Below, piece after piece: positions 8,029 through 42,031 of a stretch of DNA of 64,000 bases. Both the position numbers and the translations under genes were made by a program. Source of the DNA: Escherichia phage vB_EcoM_ESCO32; the sequence record OM386658.1. One strand, written 5' to 3'. The notes beneath the pieces were generated by a model. It searched no databases, had not been told where the DNA came from, and saw only the letters and a program-made list of their open reading frames with translations. How positions within the stretch are numbered: position 1 is the first letter of the stretch; each line of letters begins with the position of its first letter.

Positions 8029-8268
8029 TTACATTCCAACCATAGCGGCACGGATTGCAGTTTTACTATACTTGAATCCGTCCGGTGTTTTATCTTGTCC
8101 AGTTTGCTCCAGGAATAACATCATATCACGCGCGGCATCATTCTTATTTGTATTAGCTGCGATAAATTCACGCGCAAGATTATAAAAACCTTCATCGTTG
8201 TTGATCCAAAGGCTTACATTCCAATGAGTTTTGTTTTTGTGACCGTTGTACATTTTAGATTTAGCCAT
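8029..8268 (-). CDS. hypothetical early protein (about 79 aa)
   Basis: ORF track frame 8029..8325; track start overlaps the -10 TATAAT; in-frame ATG (MAKSKMYNGHK) downstream of hairpin chosen. Confidence 0.5.
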   Translation of the reverse strand: MAKSKMYNGHKNKTHWNVSLWINNDEGFYNLAREFIAANTNKNDAARDMMLFLEQTGQDKTPDGFKYSKTAIRAAMVGM

Positions 8269-8291
8269 GATGTTAATCTCTTTTTCAGTGA

Positions 8292-8350
8292 GGCGGGAAC
8301 TATTCCCGCTCTCTATGCAAAACATTATACGCCTTTAAACCTAGTTTGCA
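8292..8350 (-). promoter_or_regulatory. early promoter plus leader stem-loop cassette
   Basis: minus strand TTGCAA-16 bp-TATAAT then GGCGGGAAtagTTCCCGC. Confidence 0.6.
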
Positions 8351-8370
8351 AGTGCTTTTTAAAAATATGC

Positions 8371-8601
8371 TTAGATTGCAATCGCGTCTAGGCTATAATA
8401 ATAATAAGTGCCGTATTGGTGTACTTTATTACCTTTTATTTCAGTGCTGAATGAATCCGAACGATTAGCATATGATGTTAATTTATAATACTTTGCTTTA
8501 CTAATACGTTGCCATACACCGCAGATCCGCTGTAAGTAAGTAGTTTTATTAGTAGTAGTATCTTTTACGGTTTTAACTTCGGTCATATACATATTAGCCA
8601 T
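8371..8601 (-). CDS. hypothetical early protein (about 76 aa)
   Basis: ORF track frame 8371..8634; track start is inside the leader hairpin; in-frame ATG (MANMYMTEV) chosen. Confidence 0.45.
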   Translation of the reverse strand: MANMYMTEVKTVKDTTTNKTTYLQRICGVWQRISKAKYYKLTSYANRSDSFSTEIKGNKVHQYGTYYYYSLDAIAI

Positions 8602-8620
8602 TTTATTATACCTAGTTATA

Positions 8621-8683
8621 GGCGGGGGAACCATTCCCCCGTCCTGATATGAAACATTTTACGCTTTTTATTCGTGCTGTCAA
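8621..8683 (-). promoter_or_regulatory. early promoter plus leader stem-loop cassette
   Basis: minus strand TTGACA-16 bp-TAAAAT then GGACGGGGGAAtggTTCCCCCGCC. Confidence 0.6.
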
Positions 8684-8689
8684 TGCTTT

Positions 8690-9055
8690 TTATAAATCTT
8701 TTTTACGTTTAACATCGCTTGCATGACTGTATACAGCGATCCCATTGTCACGGCAAAAACGGGAAAGGTAAGCATAATTTGAAAAGTCTTTGCCTTCCAG
8801 GTTGATGACCTTGCTAAACTCTTCCAGGGCAACGGTATCAAAATGATCCCCGTAACCATAGTGAAACGGAACGTTAACGACTTCAATCAGTTTACCGCCG
8901 ATCTCAACGTCAACCATCAAAGAGAAATAAGTATTACCATAAGACTTTTGAAACCAGCGACGGGCGCTAATATGTACCGCTTCAATGCTGGATAGTTCAA
9001 TTTTAGCAGTGTTAGCCAGGGTAGCATAAGCAGAAACATTGATATTTTTAGCCAT
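8690..9055 (-). CDS. hypothetical early protein (121 aa)
   Basis: ORF track; ATG; promoter upstream. Confidence 0.55.
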   Translation of the reverse strand: MAKNINVSAYATLANTAKIELSSIEAVHISARRWFQKSYGNTYFSLMVDVEIGGKLIEVVNVPFHYGYGDHFDTVALEEFSKVINLEGKDFSNYAYLSRFCRDNGIAVYSHASDVKRKKDL

Positions 9056-9102
9056 AGTCTTTAATCTCTTTTGATTAGTTAGGAGTATTCCCGATAAAAG
9101 TT

Positions 9103-9131
9103 ATTATGCTTGTACTATCGTTCGTTGTCAA
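9103..9131 (-). promoter_or_regulatory. sigma70-type promoter (no hairpin)
   Basis: minus strand TTGACA-17 bp-CATAAT. Confidence 0.5.
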
Positions 9132-9150
9132 TAGCACAAGACTAAAACTT

Positions 9151-9330
9151 TTAACGATAATCATCATATGCTTTATTGACCTGGCGAATATAGCATTCAA
9201 AAGCTAGATCAATAGATTTATATTCACGGATATAATTACCATAGGAAACCACATACATTTCTATAGCTTCCTCATATGCCAGGAGGATAGAATCTAAACC
9301 TACGATCTCAGTCTTCGCAATAATAGCCAT
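9151..9330 (-). CDS. small hypothetical protein (59 aa)
   Basis: gap ORF MAIIAKTEIVGLDSILLAYEEAIEMYVVSYGNYIREYKSIDLAFECYIRQVNKAYDDYR; tandem promoters upstream. Confidence 0.45.
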   Translation of the reverse strand: MAIIAKTEIVGLDSILLAYEEAIEMYVVSYGNYIREYKSIDLAFECYIRQVNKAYDDYR

Positions 9331-9367
9331 GCTTTTATTCCTTAGTAATGTTTCAATCTATATAAGC

Positions 9368-9472
9368 ATTATAGCTTACTGATTTTAGGTGTCAACTGAT
9401 TTTTTATTTCACCTTTGAGAAGTTGCCCCGCTCTATGTGGTACATATTACGGGGCTTGTTTGCATATGTCAA
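9368..9472 (-). promoter_or_regulatory. two tandem sigma70-type promoters with long-loop GC hairpin between them
   Basis: minus strand TTGACA-17-TAATAT (9444-9472) and TTGACA-16-TATAAT (9368-9395); GCCCCG...CGGGGC inverted repeat around 9424-9455. Confidence 0.5.
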
Positions 9473-30466: not shown

Positions 30467-31627
30467 ATGTTTACAGTATTCGGCAATCAAATCTTCCTGC
30501 GTCAGAAATCTGGTACAGATATTGAAGAAATTCCAGCAGGAACTTTTGGTGTAGGTGTTACTCAAAGTGGTGAGTTCTTCCTGTATCCTAAAAACGATAT
30601 GGAAGTGCCTTCAGTAACATACGGTGATACTGATGATAAATCAGAACGTATTATCAAAACGTTCCTTAGCCGCAAAGGTAAAAACACAGGTGTTCTCCTT
30701 GAGGGTACGAAAGGTAGCGGTAAAACTTTGCAAGCTAAAATGCTGTCTTCTGCTCTTCGTGAAATGGGTATTCCTACTATTTCTATCGGCAGTGCTTTTA
30801 ATGGCGAAGGTTTTATCAATTTTATGTCTAAAATCACACAACCTGTGATGATTATGATCGATGAATTTGATAAACTGTATGCTGAAAAAGATGCACAAGA
30901 TGGTTTGCTTACCCTGTTGGATGGTGTTGGTGGCTACGACAAACTGTTTGTATTGACTAAAAATGATGGTTATGTATCAGAATTTTTGCGTAATCGTCCT
31001 AGCCGTATTTTCTACAGTTTTAGCTATAAGAAACTACCTAAAGCTACTATGGATGATTATCTGGCTAAAAATCTGGAGAACAAAGCCTTCTTACCAGATT
31101 TTGAAACGCTTTATAATCTCTCCGTGGATTTGAACTTTGATATTGTTCAGTCATTAGTAGAAGAACTTAACCGTTACCCTAATGACAAATTCTCTGATGC
31201 ACTTGCATTGATGGGTATCAGTATTACTGAACACCGCTATGCTGCAAAAGAGGTTAAACTTCTGAAAGTTAACGGTGTAGATCGTACAGGAGATGTTTCG
31301 TCAGATACCGATATTGACGGTATGACAGCACAAGGTTTGTTTAGCGGTAATCGTTATGTTGTAGCTGTAGACCATAAACTAGGTGAAGAGCATCTTCCTG
31401 AAATGGAAGGGATTGTTACCGTAGAAGATAAAGATGAAGAAGGTGACTACTACTGGGGTGTAGACCGTATCTTGCTAACGTATGATGAAAAACACATTCG
31501 TACAATGGGTGGTGACGGTTATCACTTTATGTTCACCGATGATAAAGGTAACAACATTGAAGTTGTTATTAAAAACAAAGAACGTAAAAACTACACAGAG
31601 TATGTGTTTGGTGGTCGTTCTTACTAA
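30467..31627 (+). CDS. P-loop NTPase (AAA-like), paralog of CDS 14578..15705
   Basis: ORF track 386 aa; Walker A GTKGSGKT, Walker B IMIDEFD; shared blocks LLTLLDG, LTKN.G..SEF, NRPSR.FY. Confidence 0.8.
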   Translation: MFTVFGNQIFLRQKSGTDIEEIPAGTFGVGVTQSGEFFLYPKNDMEVPSVTYGDTDDKSERIIKTFLSRKGKNTGVLLEGTKGSGKTLQAKMLSSALREMGIPTISIGSAFNGEGFINFMSKITQPVMIMIDEFDKLYAEKDAQDGLLTLLDGVGGYDKLFVLTKNDGYVSEFLRNRPSRIFYSFSYKKLPKATMDDYLAKNLENKAFLPDFETLYNLSVDLNFDIVQSLVEELNRYPNDKFSDALALMGISITEHRYAAKEVKLLKVNGVDRTGDVSSDTDIDGMTAQGLFSGNRYVVAVDHKLGEEHLPEMEGIVTVEDKDEEGDYYWGVDRILLTYDEKHIRTMGGDGYHFMFTDDKGNNIEVVIKNKERKNYTEYVFGGRSY

Positions 31628-31633
31628 GTGATA

Positions 31634-31660
31634 AAAGGAGGCGAAAGCCTCCTTTATTTA
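31634..31660 (+). terminator. rho-independent terminator
   Basis: AAAGGAGGCgaaaGCCTCCTTT followed by ATTTAT. Confidence 0.6.
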
Positions 31661-32034: not shown

Positions 32035-32691
32035 ATGACTGTTAAGCATATTTCTTTTGATGTATGGAATACTCTTATTACTGCTAATCCTTTGTATGCA
32101 GAAGAACGCAACAAGGTTATTGCCGAGTATGCCTCTTGTTCTGAGGTAGAAGCAACTACCGTATATAAAGAGGTAAAAACTCTCCTGGATTTAAAAGCAG
32201 AAAAAGGTATTTGTGGAACATCTAGGCATGCTTGGGAAACACTTTCTGCTCATTTGAACATTGATCTTGATAAGGTGGATGGGTTAAAAAGAGACTGTTT
32301 AGCAATGTTTATAAAACATCCTCCAACATTAAACCCTGAACTTTGCAAGAAGTTGGAAGAGCTAAGTTCAACCTATTCTTTGAGTATTAAAAGCAATACT
32401 AATTTTGTACCTGGTAGTTTTTTAGCTGTATATTCTGGCTTGACAAAATTACCATTCGACTTTATGCATTTTTCTGACGAGTTTTGCTTGTGTAAACCAG
32501 ATCCTAGGTTTTTTAAACTCTCTTTTGATGAAATGGTAACGTTTGATCTCGCACCAGAGGAGATCTTACACGTTGGAGATAGTTTGATCTATGATGGAAA
32601 AGCTGTTGACATAGGGATGAAGTTCTGTCATATTATTAATCCAGAAGACTTGTTGGCTAAACTTAAAAAAGAGGAACTTATTAATGCGTAA
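32035..32691 (+). CDS. HAD-like hydrolase (tentative)
   Basis: ORF track frame 32017..32691; start at ATG with GGAGGA RBS; ISFDVWNTLI (motif I-like, second Asp not conserved) and HVGDSLIYDGKA (motif IV-like). Confidence 0.55.
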   Translation: MTVKHISFDVWNTLITANPLYAEERNKVIAEYASCSEVEATTVYKEVKTLLDLKAEKGICGTSRHAWETLSAHLNIDLDKVDGLKRDCLAMFIKHPPTLNPELCKKLEELSSTYSLSIKSNTNFVPGSFLAVYSGLTKLPFDFMHFSDEFCLCKPDPRFFKLSFDEMVTFDLAPEEILHVGDSLIYDGKAVDIGMKFCHIINPEDLLAKLKKEELINA

Positions 32692-33541
32692 TCAAATTCA
32701 ACATTTTGCTAATACTTTTACTAACCTGAAGGAAGCAAAATTTAACATTGCAGATTATTCCAAGCTAAAGTTTGGTAGTAACCAGGCAGCAAAAAGAATG
32801 GGGCGCATTCTGGCTGAAAGTTTCTTTTCCAAGTATGAAGAACGACTGGTAAATGAAAGTTTTGTTGTTATTCCATCTCCATATAACTATGTGAAAAATG
32901 CAGCTACAGTGTTATCTGAACATTTTGTAGATCACCTCAACTACCTAATCTCTATCAAAGGAGGTAAAGCAGTGGAGTGGGATATCGTTCATCGTAAAGT
33001 GAGCTATATCAATGATTATGGATTTCTTAGCAAAGAAGATCGTAAGGCTTTGATCGATGGTGACACTTTCTCTATCAATCGTGATTTCTGGGGTAATAAA
33101 ACTCTGATTTTCATTGATGATGTTAATATTACAGGAACGCACGAAGAAAAACTTATTGAAATTTTAGACAAAGAAGGTGTTGAAAACGATACGTTTTTCC
33201 TGTACTTTGCAAAGTATGAAGGTACAGAAGCCAATACCGAAGCTGCACTTAACTTCAACTATATCAATAACCTGGCAGCTTTTATTAAAATGATTAAACA
33301 AGAAACTGATGCTAAATGTTTGGTTCGTCCTATTAAGTATCTAATGAGTCAAAGCGAAGTTGATTTTAAAATTGCACTTTCACAGCTTCCTTTGTATTAT
33401 GTAGAACAACTGTTCTTTGGTTGCCTTGCAGAAGGCTACAATAACATTGAAAAATATAAAGAGAACTTTGATTTCCTACGTCAATTTTTTGAAAGCAACA
33501 TTATCAACAAATCTAATGTTAAAGGGGATTATTATGTCTAA
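32684..33541 (+). CDS. phosphoribosyltransferase-like protein
   Basis: ORF track 285 aa; PRPP-binding-type motif KTLIFIDDVNITGTHEEK. Confidence 0.65.
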   Translation: MRNQIQHFANTFTNLKEAKFNIADYSKLKFGSNQAAKRMGRILAESFFSKYEERLVNESFVVIPSPYNYVKNAATVLSEHFVDHLNYLISIKGGKAVEWDIVHRKVSYINDYGFLSKEDRKALIDGDTFSINRDFWGNKTLIFIDDVNITGTHEEKLIEILDKEGVENDTFFLYFAKYEGTEANTEAALNFNYINNLAAFIKMIKQETDAKCLVRPIKYLMSQSEVDFKIALSQLPLYYVEQLFFGCLAEGYNNIEKYKENFDFLRQFFESNIINKSNVKGDYYV

Positions 33542-34250
33542 TAAAGTAATGACTTTCGGAGATCCTATCACCAATATTACAGAAAAAGATTTTGGGCGTG
33601 TAGCAACAGATAAAGATGGTGTCTTAAGAATTCGTGTACAAGGTATTACAGCACAGGATGAATATGCTGTGTATGTTTCAGGTCTTAACTATATTGATGA
33701 TCGCATTACACAAAACTTTGCACTGATCGGTGGTGTAGAGAAAATGTATTGGGAAGATGAAATTGTAACAAGTTATCCGGCAGGTATCATTGAGGTATAC
33801 GGTGATCTTTTAGCAGCAGCCGAGAGAGGCGATATAGACGCTATAGCACACTGCTGTAACTGTTTTTGCACTATGGGTAGTGGTATTGCACCAAAAATTA
33901 AAAGCAAGTGGCCTGGTGCGTTTAAAGCAGATTGTGCCACTAAACGTGGTGATTATAAAAAATTAGGTACGTTTACCAAATATATAGAAAACAATTTGAC
34001 AATTTATAATTTATATGGACAATATGGTTATAGTCGTCGTGAGGAAGGTAAGCGTGACCTGAATTATGAAGCTATCTACAATGCGTTAGATAGTATGGGA
34101 GACGATGTTGTATCTTCAGGCGGTAAAATTGTAGGTTTACCAATGCTTGGTTGTGGTTTGGCTGGAGGTTCTTGGAGTATTGTAAAACTTATGATCGAAG
34201 AAACTCTAGTAAACAAAGGTTTAAATGTAATTGTTTACAAACTGAAATAA
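33534..34250 (+). CDS. macro-domain-like protein (ADP-ribose binding or hydrolase)
   Basis: ORF track frame 33417..34250; start at ATG with AAAGGGG RBS; DAIAHCCNCFCTMGSGIAPKI and IVGLPMLGCGLAGGSW resemble macro-domain glycine-rich motifs. Confidence 0.6.
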   Translation: MSNKVMTFGDPITNITEKDFGRVATDKDGVLRIRVQGITAQDEYAVYVSGLNYIDDRITQNFALIGGVEKMYWEDEIVTSYPAGIIEVYGDLLAAAERGDIDAIAHCCNCFCTMGSGIAPKIKSKWPGAFKADCATKRGDYKKLGTFTKYIENNLTIYNLYGQYGYSRREEGKRDLNYEAIYNALDSMGDDVVSSGGKIVGLPMLGCGLAGGSWSIVKLMIEETLVNKGLNVIVYKLK

Positions 34251-34259
34251 GGAGAAAGT

Positions 34260-34466
34260 ATGGCAGGTGTTTTAGCAGTATTAGGTTGTTTTATTGTTGT
34301 GTTTTTGATTGTGTTAATCCCTAGTTGGCTACTGCTTTTAGCATACAACTATATGATTGACATTATCGGCTTAGACTGGCATCATGTTCCTGTAACGTTT
34401 TGGAGTGTAGTCTGTGTGACGTTCATTCTTGCGGTACTTCGTGGTATCTTTCAATCTAACAAATAA
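34260..34466 (+). CDS. small membrane protein (68 aa)
   Basis: ORF track; two hydrophobic helices. Confidence 0.5.
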   Translation: MAGVLAVLGCFIVVFLIVLIPSWLLLLAYNYMIDIIGLDWHHVPVTFWSVVCVTFILAVLRGIFQSNK

Positions 34467-34480
34467 GAGAGGATTTTTAT

Positions 34481-34729
34481 ATGCGTAAAGTAAATGTTGA
34501 AGTGCTTGAAAAATTTAGAAACACTCGTGATTGTACTATCGGCAAGGTTTACGAGGCTATTCTCCTTGAAGATGGAGATCAAGTTCCTGCCCCGTATCAC
34601 GCCTTTAATGGTCAAATCAGCAAAGTGGAAGGTGGTCTTGCTATTTGCTTTATTGATGACGTAGGTGATGCTGTAGCTTTCCCTGTCATTAACAAAGAAG
34701 ATAAACTTAAAATTACAGAACTGAACTAG
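34481..34729 (+). CDS. hypothetical protein (82 aa)
   Basis: ORF track; AGAGAGGA RBS. Confidence 0.55.
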   Translation: MRKVNVEVLEKFRNTRDCTIGKVYEAILLEDGDQVPAPYHAFNGQISKVEGGLAICFIDDVGDAVAFPVINKEDKLKITELN

Positions 34730-34788
34730 TTGACTTTCTTTAAAAACAGTTTATAGTATAAGACATAGAGCGGAGGATTGTCCTCCGC
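34730..34788 (+). promoter_or_regulatory. promoter plus leader stem-loop cassette (plus-strand copy) upstream of terC
   Basis: TTGACT-16 bp-TATAGT then CATAGAGCGGAGGAttgTCCTCCGC; same architecture as the minus-strand early cassettes. Confidence 0.55.
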
Positions 34789-34806
34789 ATTAAAGAGGAG
34801 AAAAGA

Positions 34807-35784
34807 ATGCAACTGGGTTTCCCAATTATTGATGTGGTTGTTTTAGTGGGTATTTTAGTCTTGTCGATTTGTATTGACTTCTTTGGACACAGAGAAAACA
34901 AAGAAATTTCATTTAAATCTGCAATTGGCTGGTCAATTTTCTGGATTGGGGTATCATTAGCCTACTATGGTTTTGTATACTTCCAACACGGTGCTGATTT
35001 TGCGAGCTTGTTCTTGAGTGGGTATGTGTTGGAGAAATCTCTTTCTGTAGATAACTTAGTAGTATTTGTAGCAGTATTCGCAAGTTTTGGTATTAAAAGC
35101 ACACACTTGCAGCACAAGATTCTACTTTGGGGTATTGCAGGTGCGATTGTCTTCCGAGGTGTGTTTGTAGCAGTAGGTACTTACTTGTTGAGTTTGGGCT
35201 GGTATGTTAATATCTTCTTCGGTGCTGTCATCCTTTTCTGTGCGGCTAAAATGGTATTCGCTGGAGATAATGATGCAGAAGTTGATTACTCTAAACACTG
35301 GGCTACTCGCATTGTTCGTAAGCTGTTCCCTGTATCTGATCAGATGGATGGTGAGAAGTTCTTCACAATCAAAAATGGTGTTCGTGTAGCAACTCCGGCT
35401 CTGGTTTGTGTGTTTGTAATGGAAATGGTTGACGTAATCTTTGCAGTAGACTCTGTTCCAGCAGTAATTGCAGTGACACAAGAACCTCTGCTGGTGTTCT
35501 CTTCGATGCTCTGTGCAATCTTAGGTTTACGTGCTCTGTTCTTTGTTCTTAGTGTTGCACTGAAGTATTTGGTTCATCTGGAGAAAGCAGTTATCGTAGT
35601 CCTGGTGTTTGTGGGTGTAAAACTGATGTATCACCCGTTTGCAGAAACTCTGCACGCAAAAGTGAGTTTCCTGCCAGCACACATTGACCCGACGATCAGT
35701 ATGTATATTGTGTTAGGTACTCTTGGGCTGGGTGTTCTTGCAAGTTTAATCTTCCCTGAAAAAGAAGACCAGGCTGTTGCTTAA
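34807..35784 (+). CDS. terC: TerC-family integral membrane protein
   Basis: ORF track 325 aa; multiple TM helices; TerC-type motifs LEKSLSVDNLVVFVAVF and VDVIFAVDSVPAVIAV. Confidence 0.85.
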   Translation: MQLGFPIIDVVVLVGILVLSICIDFFGHRENKEISFKSAIGWSIFWIGVSLAYYGFVYFQHGADFASLFLSGYVLEKSLSVDNLVVFVAVFASFGIKSTHLQHKILLWGIAGAIVFRGVFVAVGTYLLSLGWYVNIFFGAVILFCAAKMVFAGDNDAEVDYSKHWATRIVRKLFPVSDQMDGEKFFTIKNGVRVATPALVCVFVMEMVDVIFAVDSVPAVIAVTQEPLLVFSSMLCAILGLRALFFVLSVALKYLVHLEKAVIVVLVFVGVKLMYHPFAETLHAKVSFLPAHIDPTISMYIVLGTLGLGVLASLIFPEKEDQAVA

Positions 35785-35790
35785 TTCATT

Positions 35791-35813
35791 AAGCCCCTTC
35801 GGGGGCTTTATTG
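35791..35813 (+). terminator. rho-independent terminator
   Basis: AAGCCCCttcgGGGGCTT followed by TATTG. Confidence 0.55.
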
Positions 35814-35823
35814 AGGTGATCTG

Positions 35824-36030
35824 ATGGTGGTTTTACGTGTTCTTTGGATTCTGTTTGAAAATATTTGTTTTGCTCTAGGGTTGTTTTGTTTGATTTTTAT
35901 CTTGACAACATATATTGATAACCATACAATTACTATCAACAGGAACGGAGAACAGATGTATTGTTTCTCTAGGGATTTTAAAAATTGTGTTGAGATTTTA
36001 AATGAGAGGGTTACAAATGAAAAACATTAA
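35824..36030 (+). CDS. possible small membrane protein (68 aa)
   Basis: ORF track; GAGGTG RBS; hydrophobic N-terminus. Confidence 0.35.
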   Translation: MVVLRVLWILFENICFALGLFCLIFILTTYIDNHTITINRNGEQMYCFSRDFKNCVEILNERVTNEKH

Positions 36031-36607
36031 ATCTTTTATTGTTGCAGTTGTTTTAGGTAGTGCATTGCTGGTAGGTTGTGATGATTCTGAAAATGTACAA
36101 AATCAACGTTACCAACAAACACCAAATCAGATGGTAGATGAACAATATGTAAATCAGCCTGCACCTCAAGTTGTTCAAGCAGCACCTGCACAACCTTCAA
36201 CAGTTGTTGTGCAAGGAGGCGGCAGTGGTTCTTCTGGCGTAGGTGAGTTTGCTACAGGTATGCTTCTTGGTCATATGTTGAGTGGTAATAGTGGCGGTGG
36301 TGGTTATAGAGATGGCGGTAGCAATACAACAATTATCAATAACAACGCTGCTCCTACAACTAATAGTAAAGCATATACAACACAAAAGCATAGGTTTTAT
36401 GATAAACAAGGGAATACATATACAACCACTAAACAAAACACAATTAAGCAGCAAAGTGTACAAACGTATTCACGCCCATCAACAACAAAAGTGAATAGTG
36501 ATTACTCTGCTCGTAAGTCTTACTCAAGTCCTATTAGCTCTTATAGTAAGTCTTCGAAAAGTTATTCTTCGTCGAAACGTAGTTTTAGTAGCTCACGTCG
36601 TCGTTAA
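36017..36607 (+). CDS. lipoprotein with Ser/Tyr/Lys-rich low-complexity tail
   Basis: ORF track frame 36002..36607; start at MKNIKSFIVAVVLGSALLVGC (lipobox LVGC); C-terminal SYSKSSKSYSSSKRSFSSSRRR. Confidence 0.6.
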   Translation: MKNIKSFIVAVVLGSALLVGCDDSENVQNQRYQQTPNQMVDEQYVNQPAPQVVQAAPAQPSTVVVQGGGSGSSGVGEFATGMLLGHMLSGNSGGGGYRDGGSNTTIINNNAAPTTNSKAYTTQKHRFYDKQGNTYTTTKQNTIKQQSVQTYSRPSTTKVNSDYSARKSYSSPISSYSKSSKSYSSSKRSFSSSRRR

Positions 36608-36642
36608 TAATTTAATACAGATTAAATAAGAAGGAGAAACAG

Positions 36643-37494
36643 ATGAAACTAGAAGTTGGTAAAGTGTATCGCCTGGAAGGTTGGATCTTTAATCAAGAAA
36701 TTCTTGAGAAGAATAAAGATGGTTTTGAGTTTGTTGGTACTACCAAGGAAAGTATGCACAATGACGAATACTGTAAATTCGTTGGTAAAAATACAGGTCA
36801 AGAACAATTTTGCTTTAAGAGCGCAATCGGTGATTATGCTTCTGTAATGCCAACACCAGAAAAGACTTCGAAGCAATATACTGTCTTTGGTGTAAAACTT
36901 GAAGAACTTGTAGAACACCCACGTTTTGAAGAGTTCAAGGTTGCTGCAATGCGCAAGCATTCTGAAATTAAAATACATAATTTGTTTGATTTAGAAGATC
37001 GGTTTGATATCTTTATGTATGATCGCAGGGAAAAGCATTTTGATGCAACGACTTCAAAATTTGCTGCAACAGAGGATATTAAAATCCTTGATGTTGATAC
37101 CTTTCTTGAGAGTGTATCGTTTGTATTCATTCCTAAATACAAAAAACGTAGTGATCATAAACGTGTGAAAGGAACTCCTCGTAAAAAACGTACTGTAAAC
37201 AAAGCAACTTTGCACTTCACTTCTGGTGATAAATATACTCTCAAAGGGTTTGAAAGTGTTTTGTATGATGCTGGAACGGGTAATATCAAGTTTATCATTA
37301 AGGCAACCTACAAAGGTACGGTATTGCACGAAGAGGCTGTTACACTACCTGTATTCGATATCTCTCGTGTTGAGGTACGGGGTGTTAAAGAGTCCTTCGA
37401 TCTGGATTTCTTAACCGCTAATGATACTGGTTATGTTAATCTGGAAGCAGATGGAGCATTTATTACTACAAATTATTTAGATATGTTTGTTTAA
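36643..37494 (+). CDS. hypothetical protein (283 aa)
   Basis: ORF track; AAGGAGAAA RBS. Confidence 0.65.
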   Translation: MKLEVGKVYRLEGWIFNQEILEKNKDGFEFVGTTKESMHNDEYCKFVGKNTGQEQFCFKSAIGDYASVMPTPEKTSKQYTVFGVKLEELVEHPRFEEFKVAAMRKHSEIKIHNLFDLEDRFDIFMYDRREKHFDATTSKFAATEDIKILDVDTFLESVSFVFIPKYKKRSDHKRVKGTPRKKRTVNKATLHFTSGDKYTLKGFESVLYDAGTGNIKFIIKATYKGTVLHEEAVTLPVFDISRVEVRGVKESFDLDFLTANDTGYVNLEADGAFITTNYLDMFV

Positions 37495-37562
37495 TACTTA
37501 ACTTGTGTTATGATGGTGGTACAGAGGTATCACCATTTACTAAAGAATATGGAGGAAAATGA

Positions 37563-38666
37563 ATGTCCAGTCCTTTTATCAGTGCCGTAAAAAGCAAACC
37601 GTCTGAAATGAGTGTATTCACGGCAACAACAGAAAAAAGTAAGTCTTTGTTTGCTCCAAGTGCTATGGATGCAAGCCCTGTATATGCCCCTGCTGTTGCA
37701 CGACCTGTACAAATGCTGCCTCCAATGTCTCGTGAAGAGATTGAACAAGTTGGTGCTGATGCAGGACTTACTCTTCGTAACCTTAATGCTGAAGTGCTTA
37801 AACACCAACGTTCATCTCAGGGGGATGAAATGAGTGAACGTTTAACTGCACTTATTAAGCAAGCAAAGCAACTTGATCCTAACTCTATTAAACAATCTAA
37901 AGGCTTAGGTAAACTAGTTAAGAAAGTATTAGGTATGAAAGAAGATTTGTTTGGTGAATTTGACACCATCAATAATCGTATTGAAGGTTTGGTAAAGACA
38001 CTACAAACAGATTTGAAAAAAGAAGAAGATTCTTTACGATATCTGCAACGTTTAGAAGAGGCTATTGCAAAATATGCTCTTAGCTTAAACAGGGATATAG
38101 AGCTTCTAACAGCTACTTATGAAAAAGAAGAAGTTCGCCTTAATACACTACCTGAAAATGAAGTAGAAGAACGTCAACGTACTCGTGATACTATGGATCT
38201 GCTTGAAATTCGTATTGCAGACCTGAAAGCCTTGCGTTTACTGTGTGTTCAGATGGGGCCACGTGTACAAAGTATGCAGAAAGTATCTGCAAGTTTGATG
38301 CGATCAGCCCGTAATATTGTGAATAATGTTATTCCTGCTTACTCTGCAAACTTTTCTATGTATATTGAAAGTCTACGCCAGAAGAAAGCAGCAGATACAC
38401 AGAACAATGTACTGAATGAGTTTAATGCTGCTATTGCAATGGGTAGTGATCTGGCTGCACAAAACCAAATTGAAGCTACACAACTTGCTAATCGTCAAGT
38501 ATTGGATATTGAGACATTACGTCGCGATCAAGAAAACTTAGTTAAAATGTTGGAAGAAACTAATCGGATCAACACTGAAGCCCGTGCTGCTCGTATTGAT
38601 TACATTCAGGAAGTGCAATCTCTTGAAGATGGTATGATTCAAACTGTTAAACGTGGTCTACTTTAA
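37563..38666 (+). CDS. telA: TelA-like (toxic anion resistance family) protein, tentative
   Basis: ORF track 367 aa; long alpha-helical protein of TelA size in a TerC/TerD neighbourhood; assignment rests mainly on context. Confidence 0.5.
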   Translation: MSSPFISAVKSKPSEMSVFTATTEKSKSLFAPSAMDASPVYAPAVARPVQMLPPMSREEIEQVGADAGLTLRNLNAEVLKHQRSSQGDEMSERLTALIKQAKQLDPNSIKQSKGLGKLVKKVLGMKEDLFGEFDTINNRIEGLVKTLQTDLKKEEDSLRYLQRLEEAIAKYALSLNRDIELLTATYEKEEVRLNTLPENEVEERQRTRDTMDLLEIRIADLKALRLLCVQMGPRVQSMQKVSASLMRSARNIVNNVIPAYSANFSMYIESLRQKKAADTQNNVLNEFNAAIAMGSDLAAQNQIEATQLANRQVLDIETLRRDQENLVKMLEETNRINTEARAARIDYIQEVQSLEDGMIQTVKRGLL

Positions 38667-38679
38667 GGAGAAATATATT

Positions 38680-38886
38680 ATGAATATTAAAATTTACAAA
38701 CTGTCTGGTTCTATGATCGCTGTCCAGTACGACAATGAAGATCGTTATGTTCTCCTCCAGGATGCTTGGTTAGATGATCCTAATGTATTTACTGTCCTGC
38801 GAGAACTACGTTCTGTCTATACCTATTCTTCTAAAGATGGTTTTGATAGTTCAACGATGGAATTGGTAAAAGAGGAGAATGTGTAA
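38680..38886 (+). CDS. hypothetical protein (68 aa)
   Basis: ORF track frame 38653..38886; start at ATG with AAGGAGAAA RBS. Confidence 0.5.
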   Translation: MNIKIYKLSGSMIAVQYDNEDRYVLLQDAWLDDPNVFTVLRELRSVYTYSSKDGFDSSTMELVKEENV

Positions 38887-39086
38887 TGAATAAAGATATT
38901 CACTTAACTCGTGAAGAATTACAAACCATTATGGAAGATGCTTTCATTGATGGTTGGAAACAAGGTCAAGAGTCAGATTGGTATGATGCCGAAGACTTTT
39001 TGTATTATCATATGACTGCACCTGTAGACGAGCAAACACACTCTGAAACAACTTTGGCTATAATTGATCTTAAGGCTGGTGTATAA
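38886..39086 (+). CDS. hypothetical protein (66 aa)
   Basis: ORF track; TAATG coupling; contains LTREELQTIMEDAFIDGWKQG motif shared with next gene. Confidence 0.5.
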   Translation: MNKDIHLTREELQTIMEDAFIDGWKQGQESDWYDAEDFLYYHMTAPVDEQTHSETTLAIIDLKAGV

Positions 39087-39649
39087 TGGGATGTTTTAGT
39101 TTCTTGTGCAAAGAATCTGGTAATGCTGCTCTTTCTACCTCTTTCGATGGCTCTCCTTGCTACCTATTTCTTTTGAAAGGTGGTAAAGTTGTTGAAGAGA
39201 TGTATGGCAATTATGATAGCTATGGTAGTGTTTTCTCTAACGAAGAAGATAAACATGGCAATCGTAAAAGATTCAAGTGGTCTATGTCTTGGGAAGAAGT
39301 TTGTAATTTGATGTTCTCTTCCGATCTTGGAGATGGGATTGCTCTGGTATTAGAAGAGCACTTTACAGGCGAGATCCCAACAGAAAGATCTGAAGAAGAT
39401 CCTAACCAGGGTTGGGGTGATGGGGAAGAAGATCCAGATTGCTTCTTCAGCACTGAAAATAATAAATTTAAATGTGTTGACAATCCTTACCACAAAGTGC
39501 ATAATACTTGCATTGAGACAGAAGAAGACTCAAAGCTAGAAATTGAAGATGATTTAGTTGTAACTATCTCTTTAAACGAGTTGCAAAAAATCACTAGAGA
39601 GGCTTTCTATTTAGGTTGGAAAGTAGGTAAAGGAGGAGATAGTGCTTAA
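39086..39649 (+). CDS. hypothetical acidic protein (187 aa)
   Basis: ORF track; C-terminal LNELQKITREAFYLGWKVG repeats the motif of the preceding gene. Confidence 0.55.
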   Translation: MGCFSFLCKESGNAALSTSFDGSPCYLFLLKGGKVVEEMYGNYDSYGSVFSNEEDKHGNRKRFKWSMSWEEVCNLMFSSDLGDGIALVLEEHFTGEIPTERSEEDPNQGWGDGEEDPDCFFSTENNKFKCVDNPYHKVHNTCIETEEDSKLEIEDDLVVTISLNELQKITREAFYLGWKVGKGGDSA

Positions 39650-39911
39650 ATTTAATATCAAAGACGACAAATCAGATGAACCTAAATGTTTTGGAGAACT
39701 TGACGTAGGTGATACATTTGTATATTATGTTGCCTATCAAGATTCTGGTTTAGATACATTCAGAAATTTAGTGTTTATTAAGGTTAATACAAACCAAGCA
39801 ATGTGTCTGAACGGTTCGCAAAGAGGTCAACTTAGCTGTATTTCGTATGATACAGAAATGGTAGAAGTGGATTTAGAAGTTACTAACATTACACTCAGAA
39901 AGGAGAAATAA
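39642..39911 (+). CDS. hypothetical protein (89 aa)
   Basis: ORF track; GTG start with AAAGGAGGAG RBS. Confidence 0.45.
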   Translation: MLKFNIKDDKSDEPKCFGELDVGDTFVYYVAYQDSGLDTFRNLVFIKVNTNQAMCLNGSQRGQLSCISYDTEMVEVDLEVTNITLRKEK

Positions 39912-39912
39912 T

Positions 39913-40707
39913 ATGTCCAATAAAATCAGTCTTAAAAAACGTCAAGAAACTCTTACCGTATCTCTGCGTAAGAAAAAGATTAACGATGTTGTTCTTCGTG
40001 TCGGTAGTGCCTTAGATATTTCGGGTAGTATGTGTGAGCTGTATCGTGATGGCACTGTCAGTGATTTTGTAGGTAAGCTACTGCCGTTTGGTATGAAGTT
40101 TGATGATAATGCACAGATTGACATGTGGGCTTTCAATAGTTCTTCTTTTGAACTGCCTCCTGCAACGGCTGATGTATATGATGATTATGTCGGCTCTTGT
40201 ATGTCTAATGTTTGCATCAATGGTGGTACAGCTTATGCTCCAGTAATGCAAGAGATCTATGATACATACTTCGGTAGTGTACCTATGAAAAATATTACAC
40301 GCGAAGTCGTTGAGTATGAAGAAGTTCCGGCTAAGGGTTTCCTTGCTAAACTAACTGGTAAAAAAGAACGTGTAGAAGTTACACGTACTGTTGTAGAACA
40401 GGTTGTAGATACTGATGCACAAGTTGATCGTACTCCTGCAATGATTTTCTTCCAAACTGACGGGGAGAACATGGATACTTCAGCAGTACGTAGTTTGCTG
40501 AACAAACACCGCAACACTCCTGTTTACTGGTTTATGGTTGGTGTAGGTAATGCAAACTTTAAATTCCTGAAAGACTTGGCAAAAGAATACGATAACGTTG
40601 ATTTTATCGGTATTGCAGATTTGTCCTTGTCTGACGAAGAACTTTACGATAAACTGCTATCCGAAGAGTTTGGCGAGTGGGTTAAAAAATTTGGAGCAAA
40701 AGCGTAA
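39913..40707 (+). CDS. von Willebrand factor A domain protein (TerY-like)
   Basis: ORF track 264 aa; MIDAS-type DISGSM ... TDGEN; N-terminal ISLKKRQETLTVSL resembles the TerD N-terminus. Confidence 0.65.
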   Translation: MSNKISLKKRQETLTVSLRKKKINDVVLRVGSALDISGSMCELYRDGTVSDFVGKLLPFGMKFDDNAQIDMWAFNSSSFELPPATADVYDDYVGSCMSNVCINGGTAYAPVMQEIYDTYFGSVPMKNITREVVEYEEVPAKGFLAKLTGKKERVEVTRTVVEQVVDTDAQVDRTPAMIFFQTDGENMDTSAVRSLLNKHRNTPVYWFMVGVGNANFKFLKDLAKEYDNVDFIGIADLSLSDEELYDKLLSEEFGEWVKKFGAKA

Positions 40708-40714
40708 AAAACGC

Positions 40715-40742
40715 TTGACTTTGTAGAAAAGATTAGTAAAAT
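40715..40742 (+). promoter_or_regulatory. sigma70-type promoter upstream of terD
   Basis: TTGACT-16 bp-TAAAAT. Confidence 0.45.
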
Positions 40743-40779
40743 AGACAACGTAAATTAACAACAAAGGAGATAATAAATT

Positions 40780-41376
40780 ATGACTCAGAAAATTTCCCTG
40801 AAAAAAGGTTCTAGCGAAAAAGTTTCTCTGAAAAAGATTGCACCAGCACTGAAACGCATTCGTCTGGAATTCTCTTGGAAATCTAACGAAAAACTGGATC
40901 TGGATGTTAGTGCTCTGATTTGCCGACACAATGCATCTGGTCTGCCGGAACTGTTGTCTCCTCGCCACCTGGTATGCTACGCACAGAAATTTGATCCTGA
41001 ACGTTCTACTTTTGCAGGTGAAGATGTTCGTGACGGTGTAGGACAAATGGAGCAGATTGATGTTACACTGGATAATATCTCTGCTGAAGCACAGGAAATT
41101 GCATTCGTAATCACTATTGATGACGAAACGGGTAAGAAACGCCTTGGTCACGCTACCGAAGGTTTCCTTAAAATCTTCGATGATGAACGTAACGTTGAAC
41201 TGCTGGATTTTGACTTCTTGGCTCCAGAACTTGCAGGTAATACCATTTGCCACGTTGCCTCCCTGGTGCGGGAAGATAGCGAATGGAAACTGAAAGCATA
41301 TGGTGTAGGTAAAGCTGGACTTGACATTTATGATGTAGTTAAAGCGTTTGGCGCTGGCGACGATTGGTTCGAGTAA
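40780..41376 (+). CDS. terD: TerD-family tellurium-resistance/stress protein
   Basis: ORF track 198 aa; ISLKKGSSEKVSLKK ... KLDLDVSALIC ... FVITIDDE ... EDSEWKLKAYGVG aligns by eye with E. coli TerD. Confidence 0.85.
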   Translation: MTQKISLKKGSSEKVSLKKIAPALKRIRLEFSWKSNEKLDLDVSALICRHNASGLPELLSPRHLVCYAQKFDPERSTFAGEDVRDGVGQMEQIDVTLDNISAEAQEIAFVITIDDETGKKRLGHATEGFLKIFDDERNVELLDFDFLAPELAGNTICHVASLVREDSEWKLKAYGVGKAGLDIYDVVKAFGAGDDWFE

Positions 41377-41384
41377 TAAATCAT

Positions 41385-41408
41385 AGCGCCCTTCTGGGCG
41401 CATATTTT
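41385..41408 (+). terminator. rho-independent terminator
   Basis: AGCGCCCttctGGGCGC followed by ATATTTT. Confidence 0.55.
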
Positions 41409-41428
41409 AAATAGAAGAGGAGAAAACA

Positions 41429-42031
41429 ATGGGTATTACTTTAGAAGGTCAAAAACTTATTCGCAGCGGTAATTTTCTTGTGGATATTGACAACAATGAA
41501 GATTATGCTTTAGAAGTTAGTGATGTACTGTTTAATGCTTTGCAGTCTGGTTTCAATTTTGAAGTTTATGAAGTAATCCGTGGAACTAAACTCAGAGAAA
41601 CCCTTGGATCAACTAGTGATGTTTATTCTGCGATCTGGCAATATTTCGGGTTAATGGATGGTAAGACATACCTTACTGATAGTTATTCTGAAGATGTTGT
41701 TTATCTTGATATGGAAGAGTTTCGTCGTCTGTTCAAAAGTGAAGAAAATGAAGAAGAGGGTGAACTTTTTGAAGGAATTACTCTCGAAGGTAATGTTGAA
41801 ATTGTGTATAAAGCAGGAAAAACATTCCACTTGCGTGAAAACGGTAAAGCAAAAGTTGATTTTGTAAACAAGACAGTAACAACTGAACATAATTATCTTA
41901 AAGATGGTCAACCAGCTTTTGAACGTGTAACAATTAAATTTAAAGTATTGTCTGCACTAGTTACGGATCAAGAACGTATTGATTTTGTAGAAGATGGTGT
42001 AGTAACTCATACAAAGGTTTACAACATCTAA
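41429..42031 (+). CDS. hypothetical protein (200 aa)
   Basis: ORF track; AGAGGAGAAAA RBS; followed by GC hairpin AGAGGGGGgataaTCCCCCTC. Confidence 0.65.
   Translation: MGITLEGQKLIRSGNFLVDIDNNEDYALEVSDVLFNALQSGFNFEVYEVIRGTKLRETLGSTSDVYSAIWQYFGLMDGKTYLTDSYSEDVVYLDMEEFRRLFKSEENEEEGELFEGITLEGNVEIVYKAGKTFHLRENGKAKVDFVNKTVTTEHNYLKDGQPAFERVTIKFKVLSALVTDQERIDFVEDGVVTHTKVYNI

Follow-up and report, generated by a model that had tools for sequence, protein, structure and literature searches.

The locus under study, positions 32035-42031 of the window (the whole 64,000-nt stretch of Escherichia phage vB_EcoM_ESCO32 DNA analysed, OM386658.1), consists of 17 tightly packed plus-strand genes that correspond one-to-one to the annotated genes Phi92_gp187 to gp171. 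The phage is a phi92-like, virulent-type myovirus (Justusliebigvirus) infecting E. coli, with 99.2% identity to sequenced phages, and nrdD/nrdG immediately precede the block, with more nucleotide-metabolism genes near, corroborating a sequence-only reading that had described a virulent-looking phage and a position beside nucleotide-metabolism genes. Pfam profile searches of the 17 ORFs supported HAD, PRTase_3, Macro, TerC, TelA, TerF-like vWA and TerD, which upholds all the domain assignments of that reading, and returned no match for 10 of the 17, in keeping with its mention of unrecognisable interleaved ORFs. Six families belonging to one described system fall inside 9.3 kb. The cluster is not new, as its genes are so annotated in many GenBank records.

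The first gene (32035..32691, phi92 gp187) encodes a HAD-superfamily hydrolase (PHROG 14393) whose match to Pfam PF00702 (E=3.5e-6) lies barely over the curated cut-off. Motifs II-IV are intact, and motif I reads D-V-W-N-T with a Trp at Asp+2, conserved in all homologues; the nearest PDB entry, 2om6, has FDVWNTL in common. Because the general acid/base at Asp+2 is missing, a simple 'nucleotide phosphatase' step is not assured. The 3' end of the HAD gene overlaps by 8 nt with the next gene (32684..33541, phi92 gp186), which encodes a type I phosphoribosyltransferase of the PRTase_3 (ComF-like) family (PF15610, 1.1e-41) with a C-terminal helical extension. Its motif LIFIDDVNITGT forms the PRPP loop, with D145, D146, T150 and G151 invariant across 32 homologues, and an AF2 model (pLDDT 91.9), best matched in Foldseek by HG(X)PRT, H. 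pylori ComF and PyrR, confirms the predicted PRTase fold. The translationally coupled pair would most likely use PRPP and some base-like acceptor to form a small molecule resembling a nucleotide or nucleoside. Against this, PRTases of the ComF type may bind nucleic acid instead of producing nucleotides.

The adjoining gene (33534..34250, phi92 gp185) encodes a macrodomain protein of the DarG/SCO6735/TARG1 class (PF01661 1.1e-6, residues 106-217), with an NCBIfam DarG match of 8e-13 and a PADLOC DarG match covering positions 6-144 of 329. It also carries a ~85-aa N-terminal extension. Alignment with PDB 5e3b (5e-16) revealed that the equivalents of Asn27, Gln85 and Gly128 are kept; SCO6735 removes thymidine-linked ADP-ribose, for which Asn27 and Gln85 are required, while G128E lowers activity (PMC9411070). 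If the phage protein is a hydrolase, it would strip DarT-type ADP-ribose off phage DNA, and AdfM is a demonstrated phage macrodomain anti-DarT factor (PMC13309987). The sequence-only reading had counted this gene as part of the module, but its family occurs in 2,901 phage records, T4 Tk.4 included, versus 143-156 for TerD and PRTase_3, and it is adjacent to the HAD-PRTase_3 pair only in Stephanstirmvirinae. The macro gene probably encodes a stand-alone orphan enzyme, an anti-DarT hydrolase of ADP-ribosylated DNA, rather than a Ter component; the Gln at its catalytic position, where DarG has Lys, and the N-terminal extension speak against this reading.

Upstream, the first transcription unit is bounded by a terminator-like hairpin with a 9-bp stem and T-rich tail (31634..31655, plus strand), which lies after the AAA ATPase gene and carries a terminator annotation in phage Paula, and a GC-rich hairpin resembling a bidirectional terminator (41386..41401) follows TerD, so that terminator-like hairpins flank the units. 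TerC is preceded by a promoter and leader (34730..34806, plus strand) comprising a sigma-70-type promoter (TTGACT-16-TATAGT, 34730-34757), a 5' UTR hairpin (34770-34788) and an unpaired Shine-Dalgarno sequence. The hairpin (-15 kcal/mol, z = -4.2) is kept in phAPEC8 with an altered stem sequence, a host-dependent promoter is annotated in phAPEC8 at the place corresponding to the TerC promoter, and an Rfam search of the leader detected no riboswitch. A second sigma-70-type promoter, recognised by its sequence pattern (TTGACT-16-TAAAAT, 40715..40742, plus strand), lies ahead of TerD, in agreement with the earlier claim that TerC and TerD have promoters of their own. The window has 17 copies of this pattern where 0.69 would be expected, on the strand matching that of the genes.

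TerC, two small hydrophobic proteins and a lipoprotein are encoded side by side. The first small protein (34260..34466) has two hydrophobic, predicted transmembrane segments and 60% identity in phAPEC8. TerC (34807..35784, phi92 gp182; Pfam TerC 1.2e-38) is a TerC/Alx-family polytopic inner-membrane protein with ~9 hydrophobic segments, a putative divalent-metal transporter that scored 323 bits with NCBIfam TIGR03718 TerC/Alx, for which the cut-off is 246. It is followed by a small protein with one hydrophobic segment and a weak, sub-threshold DUF6693 match (35824..36030), and by the predicted lipoprotein (36017..36607, start as annotated in Paula), in which the hydrophobic N-terminus, signal peptide, lipobox LVGC and subsequent Asp-Asp (+2, +3) substantiate the earlier lipoprotein call; its mature part is low-complexity, rich in Ser, Gly and Gln, and has 36% identity in phAPEC8. 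Under the E. coli Lol sorting rule, Asp+2 leads to inner-membrane retention, which would therefore be expected for this lipoprotein.

Further downstream, the TelA-family protein (37563..38666, phi92 gp178; PF05816 5.1e-34, positions 13-330 of 332; PHROG 5890) has 79% identity in phAPEC8. The vWA protein (39913..40707, phi92 gp173; PF10138 7.2e-39) is of the TerF C-terminal type with a ~45-aa insert, and its MIDAS (DxSxS, T, D) is intact, with D35, S37, S39, T106 and D183 invariant. The TerD-domain protein (40780..41376, phi92 gp172) matched PF02342 (5.1e-28) and PDB 2kxt (8.6e-15), and alignment with phage TerDs revealed that its acidic calcium-binding loop is partly degenerate (GEDVRDGVGQMEQ vs GDNRTGEGDGDDE).

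The unrecognised interleaved ORFs at 36643, 39086 and 41429 do not belong to the conserved module. The 283-aa product of ORF 36643 (36643..37494, phi92 gp179) is an ORFan without a Pfam match, having two close homologues among 5.8 billion proteins and weak conservation in phAPEC8 in its C-terminal part only. The 200-aa product of ORF 41429 (41429..42031, phi92 gp171), also without a Pfam match, comes from a phage family of very few members that is absent from phAPEC8; one distant relative has a weak homologue, placed between TerC and vWA. Judged by homologue distribution, these two ORFs are restricted to this lineage, and together with a small 82-aa ORF (34481..34729; no family match, no homologue in phAPEC8) they are best described as putative lineage-specific fillers. 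By homologue survey, ORF 39086 (39086..39649, phi92 gp175) is a member of a phage family that is widespread and strongly conserved and lacks a recognisable fold. Its homologues elsewhere occur in unrelated contexts with no Ter linkage, and a near-identical phage lacks this ORF. Two small ORFs (38680..39086, phi92 gp177 and gp176) and a small 89-aa ORF duplicated in phAPEC8 (39642..39911) matched no family.

In Phapecoctavirus phAPEC8 the whole block is syntenic with 36-81% protein identity, ORFs 34481 and 41429 excepted, and PRTase_3 and TerD have 131 records each in the identity bands of Stephanstirmvirinae-type phages. Across distant phages, jumbo phages among them, 8 of ~15 independent lineages have HAD-PRTase_3 no more than 10 kb from TerD, vWA, TelA and TerC/DUF475, and a vWA-anchored survey found TerD and a TerC-like gene within 10 kb in 11 of 12 lineages. 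TerC-like, TerD and vWA genes thus form a core compactly clustered in at least 11 distant phage lineages, to which TelA and the HAD-PRTase_3 pair are frequent additions in differing gene order, as in TerC-x-vWA-TerD-TerD-TelA-HAD-PRT in one lineage (L021) and TelA-vWA-DUF475-HAD-PRT-TerD in another (L017). Because many phages without close relationship share this clustering of families while the gene order differs, the clustering goes beyond chance. PRTase_3 was directly preceded by HAD in 26 of 26 phage loci examined, but the pair stands without a Ter gene within 8-10 kb, the extent of each locus, in ~7 phage lineages, indicating that it can act alone, and it likewise stands without a nearby Ter gene on rhizobial plasmids and replicons, where the annotated genes show no phage context. 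The link of HAD-PRTase_3 to Ter is frequent, not obligatory: the single module of the earlier reading does recur in phages, but the pair also occurs without Ter, and the clustering expected of homologous phages is found in many. Of the phages whose pair has no Ter gene close by, Xanthomonas phage XaC1 and the Caulobacter phages do carry TerD, 28-165 kb away from PRTase_3.

Phage Ter systems with PRTase and HAD have been described, with superinfection exclusion as the proposed function (Iyer et al. 2021, PMC7824862), and phage Ter genes were noted for phiKp34 (PMC8386662). Our literature search found no experiment on any phage Ter gene, consistent with the earlier statement that such a set has no characterised phage function, and the biological role is therefore approached by analogy with plasmid and chromosomal ter loci. 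Bacterial ter determinants confer phage inhibition and colicin resistance, dependent on terC, terD and terZ, and deletion of Klebsiella terC gave larger phage plaques and less Zn and Mn resistance (PMC12054061).

Taking these observations together, we tentatively favour, at a little short of an even balance, the reading that the phage encodes a Ter-type system in this block, with an envelope- or ion-changing, exclusion role, with unrelated accessory genes beside and within it and the macro gene separate. The Ter part would comprise the TerC/Alx-type metal transporter, two small membrane proteins, the lipoprotein, TelA, the TerF-type MIDAS vWA and TerD, with the HAD-PRTase_3 pair as its companion. 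We infer from the sigma-70-type promoters at TerC and TerD that host RNA polymerase would make the system at an early stage of infection, without a Mn/pH riboswitch. Following Anantharaman, Iyer and Aravind, the Ter proteins may assemble into a divalent-cation-dependent complex at the inner membrane that would alter both the envelope of the infected cell and its ion state, blocking superinfecting phages and colicin-type attack and keeping the membrane functional until programmed lysis; the small molecule from HAD-PRTase_3 may serve as TerD ligand or signal.

A metal-homeostasis helper, in which the TerC/Alx-type exporter with metal-binding TerD and vWA resets Mn, Zn or Ca levels, might favour the phage's metalloenzymes or load metal onto phage proteins that are periplasmic or secreted, with exclusion a side effect at most. 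The placement of TerC in the TerC/Alx 'metal homeostasis' subfamily over the curated cut-off, the metal ligands in the MIDAS motif and TerD acidic residues, and the nearby nrdD/nrdG and other nucleotide-metabolism genes are consistent with this. Anaerobic RNR, however, has no Mn requirement. The Klebsiella ter operon is itself induced by Zn and Mn, beside the resistance that terC provides (PMC12054061), but with the riboswitch lost, expression would seem to be constitutive and not responsive to metal, and the recurrent linkage with TelA and HAD-PRTase_3 is left unexplained, so that we consider this helper role not very likely. We rate as unlikely a counter-defence function, whereby Ter would shield the inner membrane from depolarising or perforating Abi effectors, and/or the HAD-PRTase_3 molecule would disturb host immune signalling or nucleotide depletion. 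Bacterial ter loci do guard against pore-forming colicins (as summarised in PMC12054061), the adjoining macro gene as a plausible anti-DarT factor suggests a counter-defence neighbourhood, host sigma-70-type promoters point to early expression, and HAD-PRTase_3 neighbours NMN adenylyltransferase/Nudix, Nudix, RNA ligase and NT5C genes in other phages; against it, a PADLOC and anti-defence family search gave no match for the Ter proteins, PRTase or HAD, and the rhizobial plasmids carry the pair outside a phage context among their annotated genes.

The genes might also form no single system but an accessory region of independently acting genes brought together by chance, as the clearly independent macro gene, the independent and variably present ORF 39086, the lineage-specific fillers, the ability of HAD-PRTase_3 to stand alone and the TerD-PRTase_3 distances in Caulobacter phages and XaC1 would suggest. 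This is quite improbable given that in many phage lineages unrelated to one another the same five or six families are packed into at most 10 kb, in differing order, that the PRTase_3 and TerD record counts are equal, and that bacteria show the same association (Anantharaman 2012, per summary in PMC7824862). As for the DNA-modification role also raised by the sequence-only reading, in which a modified base or nucleoside precursor made by PRTase and HAD would feed the hypermodification of phage DNA, only the position by nucleotide-metabolism genes and the PRPP-dependent chemistry speak for it, and nothing else in the analysis favours it. The block has no transglycosylase, DNA glycosyltransferase, kinase or polymerase-linked partner by Pfam, the pair's conserved partners are membrane and metal-binding proteins, and its presence on rhizobial plasmids is likewise adverse, making such a role highly improbable.

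Some features count against the favoured reading. The Pfam search of the block detected neither TerB, a standard component of bacterial Ter loci, nor the ATP-grasp, TRSP and C-C lyase enzymes that the biosynthetic module has in bacteria, and the HAD motif I and the TerD loop depart from the usual pattern as described above. Bacterial alx/terC-family genes are under Mn/pH riboswitch control, whereas the phage TerC leader is without a riboswitch, and most other phage TerDs have an acidic loop without the degeneration seen here. By contrast with DarG, which has a Lys at the catalytic position, the phage macrodomain protein has a Gln there; the catalytic residues of SCO6735, itself a DarG-like hydrolase acting on ADP-ribosylated DNA, are retained in it.

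Pfam profile searches on the 17 plus-strand ORFs of the block at 32035–42031 bore out all seven domain assignments of the sequence-only reading, which had taken the block for a Ter-associated module. In gene order, and all on the plus strand, these are a HAD protein (32035–32691; E = 3.5e-6, 28.0 against a cut-off of 26.4), a 'ComF-like' phosphoribosyltransferase of the PRTase_3 family (32684–33541; PF15610, E = 1.1e-41, 143 bits against a cut-off of 28.7), a macrodomain protein (33534–34250; E = 1.1e-6), TerC (34807–35784; PF03741, E = 1.2e-38), TelA (37563–38666; PF05816, E = 5.1e-34), a TerF-like vWA protein (39913–40707; PF10138, E = 7.2e-39) and TerD (40780–41376; PF02342, E = 5.1e-28, with a match to PDB entry 2kxt at 8.6e-15). 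TerC also scored above the curated cut-off of the NCBIfam TerC/Alx model TIGR03718 (323 bits versus 246) and contained about nine hydrophobic segments, and its neighbourhood was rich in membrane proteins. The ORFs starting at 34260 and 35824 encode small, hydrophobic proteins, and a plus-strand gene at 36017–36607 encodes a predicted lipoprotein with a signal peptide and an LVGC lipobox, directly after which come two Asp residues. The MIDAS of the vWA protein was intact, with DxSxS, T and D invariant, and the protein carried an insert of ~45 aa; sequence searches of the PDB returned no match for vWA or TelA. In TerD, residues D40, D42, D82 and E91 were invariant among phage TerDs, while several acidic positions were lost from the loop, which reads GEDVRDGVGQMEQ as against the canonical calcium-binding GDN(R/L)TGxGDGDDE and is partly degenerate relative to Klebsiella TerD and most other phage TerDs. 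Ten block ORFs had no Pfam family, and the Pfam scan detected TerB in none of the 17 ORFs and no ATP-grasp, TRSP or C-C lyase in the block. We are highly confident that the block encodes a Ter-type system.

The locus is real but already known: sequences and annotations of it go back to phi92, a 2015 screen of a therapeutic cocktail picked it out as 'TerD / tellurite resistance' (PMC4690881), and its system class was interpreted in 2021 (PMC7824862). By megablast, 54 GenBank phage records each covered at least 80% of 32035–42031, with Escherichia phages outra and vB_EcoM_ESCO8 matching best at 99.2% identity, and the block matched Phi92_gp187 down to gp171 gene for gene; the annotated relative Paula is a Justusliebigvirus (Stephanstirmvirinae, phi92-like). 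GenBank records already bear the labels 'tellurite resistance protein', 'integral membrane protein TerC', 'VWA domain-containing protein', 'putative phosphoribosyltransferase', 'putative macrodomain protein' and 'HAD-like', and our literature search found no experimental study of a phage Ter system. The block is preceded by nrdD, nrdG and an AAA ATPase gene and followed by a SleB-type cell-wall hydrolase, glycosyltransferases and a T7-like primase/helicase. The 386-aa AAA ATPase (30467–31627), which lies just upstream of the block and is followed by a strong terminator-like hairpin, was kept in Justusliebigvirus-type relatives and missing from the Phapecoctavirus phAPEC8. Five records named 'Campylobacter phage' with the host label C. 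jejuni (MG065639, MG065645, MG065656, MG065689 and MG065650) were 97.7% identical over the block to E. coli Justusliebigvirus or Phapecoctavirus genomes, and their host labels are probably wrong or the result of contamination.

The whole block was syntenic in phAPEC8, with protein identities of 81% for TerD, 79% for TelA, 71% for TerC, 67% for vWA, 65% for PRTase, 50% for HAD and 49% for Macro, and PRTase_3 and TerD were each found in 131 records within Stephanstirmvirinae-type identity bands. Outside the subfamily, loci were collected from PRTase_3 matches in metagenomes, IMG/VR and GenBank phages, and their ORFs were searched with family-built profiles. In these pattern-seeded samples, HAD lay directly upstream of PRTase_3 in all 26 loci, and in 8 of ~15 independent lineages outside Stephanstirmvirinae the HAD–PRTase_3 pair lay within 10 kb of TerD, vWA-TerF and TelA together with either TerC or its paralogue DUF475. 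These eight arrangements were often compact operons whose gene order differed, as in TerC-x-vWA-TerD-TerD-TelA-HAD-PRT (L021) and TelA-vWA-DUF475-HAD-PRT-TerD (L017), the others being L005, L008, L023, L025, L026 and L030. A reciprocal scan of viral contigs, seeded with the vWA-TerF alignment, covered 12 lineages; in 11 of these both TerD and a TerC-like protein were encoded no more than 10 kb away, and TelA was recovered in ~7 and HAD-PRTase_3 in 6. From both neighbourhood scans, therefore, the core of the system is a TerC-like membrane protein together with TerD and vWA, and TelA and HAD-PRTase_3 are frequent accessories. Scattering of these genes in homologous phages, the finding that would have spoken against the module, was confined to a minority, namely Caulobacter phages, with ~28 kb between the PRTase and TerD genes, and Xanthomonas phage XaC1, with ~165 kb between them. 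Unannotated proteins of 317–389 aa adjoined TerD at L017:11436–12389, L008:1514–2557, L023:11530–12468 and L005:4603–5772; they showed weak similarity to the TelA profile (hhalign probability 40–67%) and may be divergent TelA-like components.

The accessory pair also exists by itself. Free-standing copies were found in Rhizobium phages, Xanthomonas phage XaC1 and several metagenomic phages, and in rhizobial plasmids and chromosomes (L032–L043), where the proteins were ~40% identical to those of the phages and no Ter gene lay within 10 kb; on plasmid pRL10 of R. johnstonii 3841 (L046, record 107669–109142) the pair stood as a unit of two genes close to repA. Two Bacteroidota MAG contigs carried the pair next to TerD, and one of them had a TerC-like gene adjoining it as well. 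Other frequent phage neighbours were nucleotide, NAD or RNA-repair genes (NMNAT/Nudix, Nudix, RNA ligase and NT5C). In Xanthomonas phage XaC1_252, a 528-aa DUF2828/DUF7788 protein (L003:8941–10527) is encoded directly downstream of HAD-PRTase_3. The PRPP loop of the phosphoribosyltransferase, LIFIDDVNITGTHE, in which T-G-T comes after an acidic pair, was invariant in 32 diverse homologues, with D145, D146, T150 and G151 all unchanged. Its AlphaFold (AF2) model (pLDDT 91.9) matched HG(X)PRT, H. pylori ComF and PyrR with a Foldseek probability of 1.0 and contained an extra C-terminal helical domain, and a sequence search of the PDB gave no significant match (best E-value 0.086), no close relative with a solved structure or characterised function being found. 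In the HAD protein, motifs II–IV, with their Ser/Thr, Lys and paired acidic residues, were conserved (SIKSNT, cKPdp and HVGDsxxyD), and the phosphatase form of motif I, DxDx(T/V), was present neither in the 32035–32691 protein nor in its homologues; motif I reads D-V-W-N-T here and D-[VF]-W-[NK]-T across homologues. Because Trp replaces the Asp+2 general acid/base in every homologue, and also in the nearest PDB relative, 2om6, a phosphatase step in which HAD removes the 5' phosphate is plausible but not assured.

The macrodomain gene had been counted in the Ter module by the sequence-only reading, and here that reading did not hold. The macro family occurred in 2,901 phage records, including T4 Tk.4, compared with 143–156 records for TerD and PRTase_3, and adjoined the HAD–PRTase_3 pair only in Stephanstirmvirinae. 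Its closest solved relatives were SCO6735 (5e3b, 5.4e-16), BT1257, TARG1 and DarG, the PDB matches to 2fg1 and TARG1 being at 1.9e-15 and 4e-10. The NCBIfam DarG model matched at 8e-13 (48 bits against a cut-off of 250) and the PADLOC DarG model at 3.5e-13 over profile positions 6–144 of 329, that is, the macrodomain part only, and with these profiles the C-terminal DarT-binding domain of full-length DarG was not found. In the alignment, the equivalents of SCO6735 Asn27, Gln85 and Gly128 were conserved, Gln took the place of DarG Lys80 (TARG1 Lys84) and Ala that of TARG1 Asp125, precisely the substitutions seen in SCO6735, and SCO6735 Lys34 and Lys89 were replaced by Ser, with an Arg-Arg adjacent. 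SCO6735 strips DarT-made thymidine-linked ADP-ribose, needs Asn27 and Gln85 to do so, and loses activity in part upon the G128E substitution (PMC9411070); in chimalliviruses, the phage macrodomain protein AdfM was shown in 2026 to be an anti-DarT2 factor (PMC13309987). Given its wide distribution, its likeness to SCO6735 and DarG, the kept residues and the AdfM precedent, we propose the macro protein as an independent candidate orphan antitoxin that belongs to the Gln-type (SCO6735-like) subclass and could plausibly act against DarT2. Its N-terminal extension of ~85 aa was confined to close relatives (Justusliebigvirus). Phage members of the macro family are usually annotated as 'phosphatase', and judged from sequence the family is a candidate broad class of anti-DarT2 factors.

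Along with the macro gene, three ORFs without recognised domains, starting at 36643, 39086 and 41429, lie outside the Ter system. The N-terminal 140 residues of the 39086–39649 protein define a widespread and very conserved phage family (294 clusters) with the invariant motifs GCFSF..C, GNYDSYG, DPNQGWG and P.H, whose members elsewhere sit among replication, phosphoesterase and Zeta-toxin/AAA_33-type kinase-like genes, not among Ter genes, and a near-identical phage (L013) is without this ORF. Its structural model was confident (pLDDT 84) and matched no known fold, and a sequence search gave no PDB match. The 36643 protein is an ORFan with only two near-identical homologues, and the 41429 family had 12 representatives, was absent from phAPEC8, and had a weak homologue between TerC and vWA in one distant relative, L021 (hhalign 79%; BLASTP 4e-6). 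Compared directly, 36643 and the 41429 family were unrelated, and hhalign comparisons of the unknown ORFs with each other and with other phage Ter-locus unknowns gave weak signals only. The ORF starting at 34481 was specific to this lineage. By eye, a 66-aa ORF (38886–39086) and the C-terminal tail of the 39086 protein (39560–39649) seem to share the short motif EL..I..eAF..GWK.G.

The block contains three transcription units. A terminator-like hairpin (31634–31655) precedes a tightly packed HAD/PRTase_3/Macro unit with an 8-nt overlap at each junction, and plus-strand promoters were placed ahead of TerC (34730–34757, TTGACT-16-TATAGT) and TerD (40715–40742, TTGACT-16-TAAAAT), the latter gene being followed by a GC hairpin (41386–41401). 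For the promoter pattern TTGACW-N16-17-TAWRRT, 17 occurrences were counted in the window where 0.69 would be expected, all of them on the coding strand. These sites fell in 1600–9400 on the minus strand and in 17766–45659 on the plus strand; 11 sigma-70-like promoters were packed into the minus-strand 1.6–9.4 kb, which suggests a densely promoted early region. The TerC leader was only 77 nt long and consisted of the promoter and a simple 5' UTR hairpin (−15 kcal/mol, z = −4.2) that left the Shine-Dalgarno sequence free. In phAPEC8, a hairpin with another stem sequence occupied the same place (−14.3 kcal/mol), and the authors of that genome had marked a host-dependent promoter at the corresponding position. 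A yybP-ykoY Mn/pH riboswitch in this leader was considered and rejected, as Rfam gave no match in the whole window at the gathering threshold or in 34450–34900 at E ≤ 10.

What the system may do for the phage is suggested by its bacterial and phage counterparts. Phage inhibition and colicin resistance by bacterial ter loci depend on terC, terD and terZ, and Klebsiella deleted for terC had enlarged phage plaques and was less resistant to Zn and Mn (PMC12054061). In the scheme of Iyer et al., PRTase and HAD synthesise a signal, TerD and TerB sense the ligand, TerC provides a response at the membrane, and TelA and TerF-vWA account for structures beneath it; they proposed competition with superinfecting phages (PMC7824862). 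By analogy, we tentatively favour, at somewhat less than even chances, a role in which the phage would build a Ter complex early in infection that adjusts the infected cell's envelope and its ion state, excludes competitors and shields the membrane up to lysis, with a PRPP-derived small molecule acting on TerD. A bolder reading, in which a hitherto undescribed ribosylated metabolite made by HAD-PRTase_3 would bind TerD and thereby switch a TerC/TelA/vWA complex that shields the inner membrane from superinfecting phages, colicins and membrane-disrupting abortive-infection effectors, is quite unlikely as stated.

Other accounts read the same evidence differently. A purely metal-homeostatic role would fit the Zn and Mn phenotype of the Klebsiella deletion, and we regard it as unlikely. 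Counter-defence against membrane-targeting abortive-infection effectors or immune nucleotides we hold to be decidedly improbable; no PADLOC defence-system model matched any Ter, PRTase or HAD protein. That the block is a mosaic of unrelated genes, a reading for which its macro gene and unrecognised ORFs speak and against which the clustering in both neighbourhood scans speaks, is very unlikely. DNA modification, raised by the sequence-only reading, was rejected, as no supporting partner gene was found, and we give it next to no credence.

Ter determinants occur widely among pathogens and on plasmids, resistance to tellurite, colicins and phages has been linked to them since the 1990s, and to our knowledge the Ter mechanism and its predicted nucleoside-like product have stayed unsolved for decades. 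Virulent phages that plate on K-12 and carry a compact Ter set, several of them in the public BASEL collection, offer a tractable model, in which the Ter genes are candidates for being non-essential, have simple promoters and act in a host without its own ter operon. Gene function also matters for phage therapy, since 'tellurite resistance' annotations are flagged in the safety screening of cocktails (PMC4690881). If the small-molecule-gated shielding of the inner membrane were true, it would constitute a new class of phage counter-defence and the first mechanistic handle on Ter. To the known locus, the present analysis adds the core/accessory split, made cleaner by setting aside the macro gene and the three unrecognised ORFs, the invariable pairing of HAD with PRTase_3 and the free-standing existence of the pair, the variant HAD motif, the macro protein as a separate candidate anti-DarT factor, and the 39086 family as an unrelated unknown.

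Bacterial Ter systems comprise terZABCDEF on IncHI2 plasmids and the O157 island, telA/klaB, and B. subtilis yceCDEFGH, and were reportedly defined as stress-response systems through comparative genomics by Anantharaman, Iyer and Aravind in 2012. The phage block resembles them in TerC, TerD, TelA and the TerF-type vWA, in the accompanying PRTase and HAD, and in a membrane-linked architecture rich in metal ligands. It differs in lacking TerB, in having a single TerD paralogue, whose acidic loop is partly degenerate, in the ~45-aa vWA insert, and in its carrier, a virulent phage; phage promoters of host sigma-70 type serve it, and no riboswitch or stress-type regulation was found in the block. 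It is also without the ATP-grasp, TRSP/PRTase_2 and C-C lyase that the 2012 bacterial biosynthetic module is said to include. With the TerY-P triad (TerY vWA, PP2C phosphatase and Ser/Thr kinase) it has a Ter-associated vWA in common, and PADLOC gave no TerY-P match for the vWA or its neighbours, nor did Pfam detect a kinase or PP2C phosphatase in the block.

The sole robust PADLOC match was that of the macro protein to DarG; marginal, sub-significant matches to mad8 (the AAA ATPase outside the block) and Cas12g (36643) were disregarded. The macro protein falls in the same macrodomain subclass as DarG2, SCO6735 and TARG1 and has the stand-alone architecture of an orphan antitoxin, as does AdfM. 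Unlike DarG and AdfM, it carries Gln for Lys at the catalytic position, as SCO6735 does, and unlike DarG it is without a DarT-binding domain and has the additional N-terminal region of ~85 aa.

Close counterparts of the block are the PRTase- and HAD-containing phage Ter operons that Iyer et al. reported from Acinetobacter phage ME3 and Caulobacter jumbo phages and extended to 'certain other related smaller tailed phages' (PMC7824862), the system having also been noted in the phiKp34 study (PMC8386662). Whereas PRTase and TerD lie ~28 kb apart in the Caulobacter phages, the module here spans 9.3 kb, with nine unrelated ORFs and the macro gene interspersed, in the 146-kb genome of a non-jumbo phage of E. 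coli. PRTase, HAD, TerD, TerC, TerF-vWA and TelA are shared with those operons, and the same interpretation applies.
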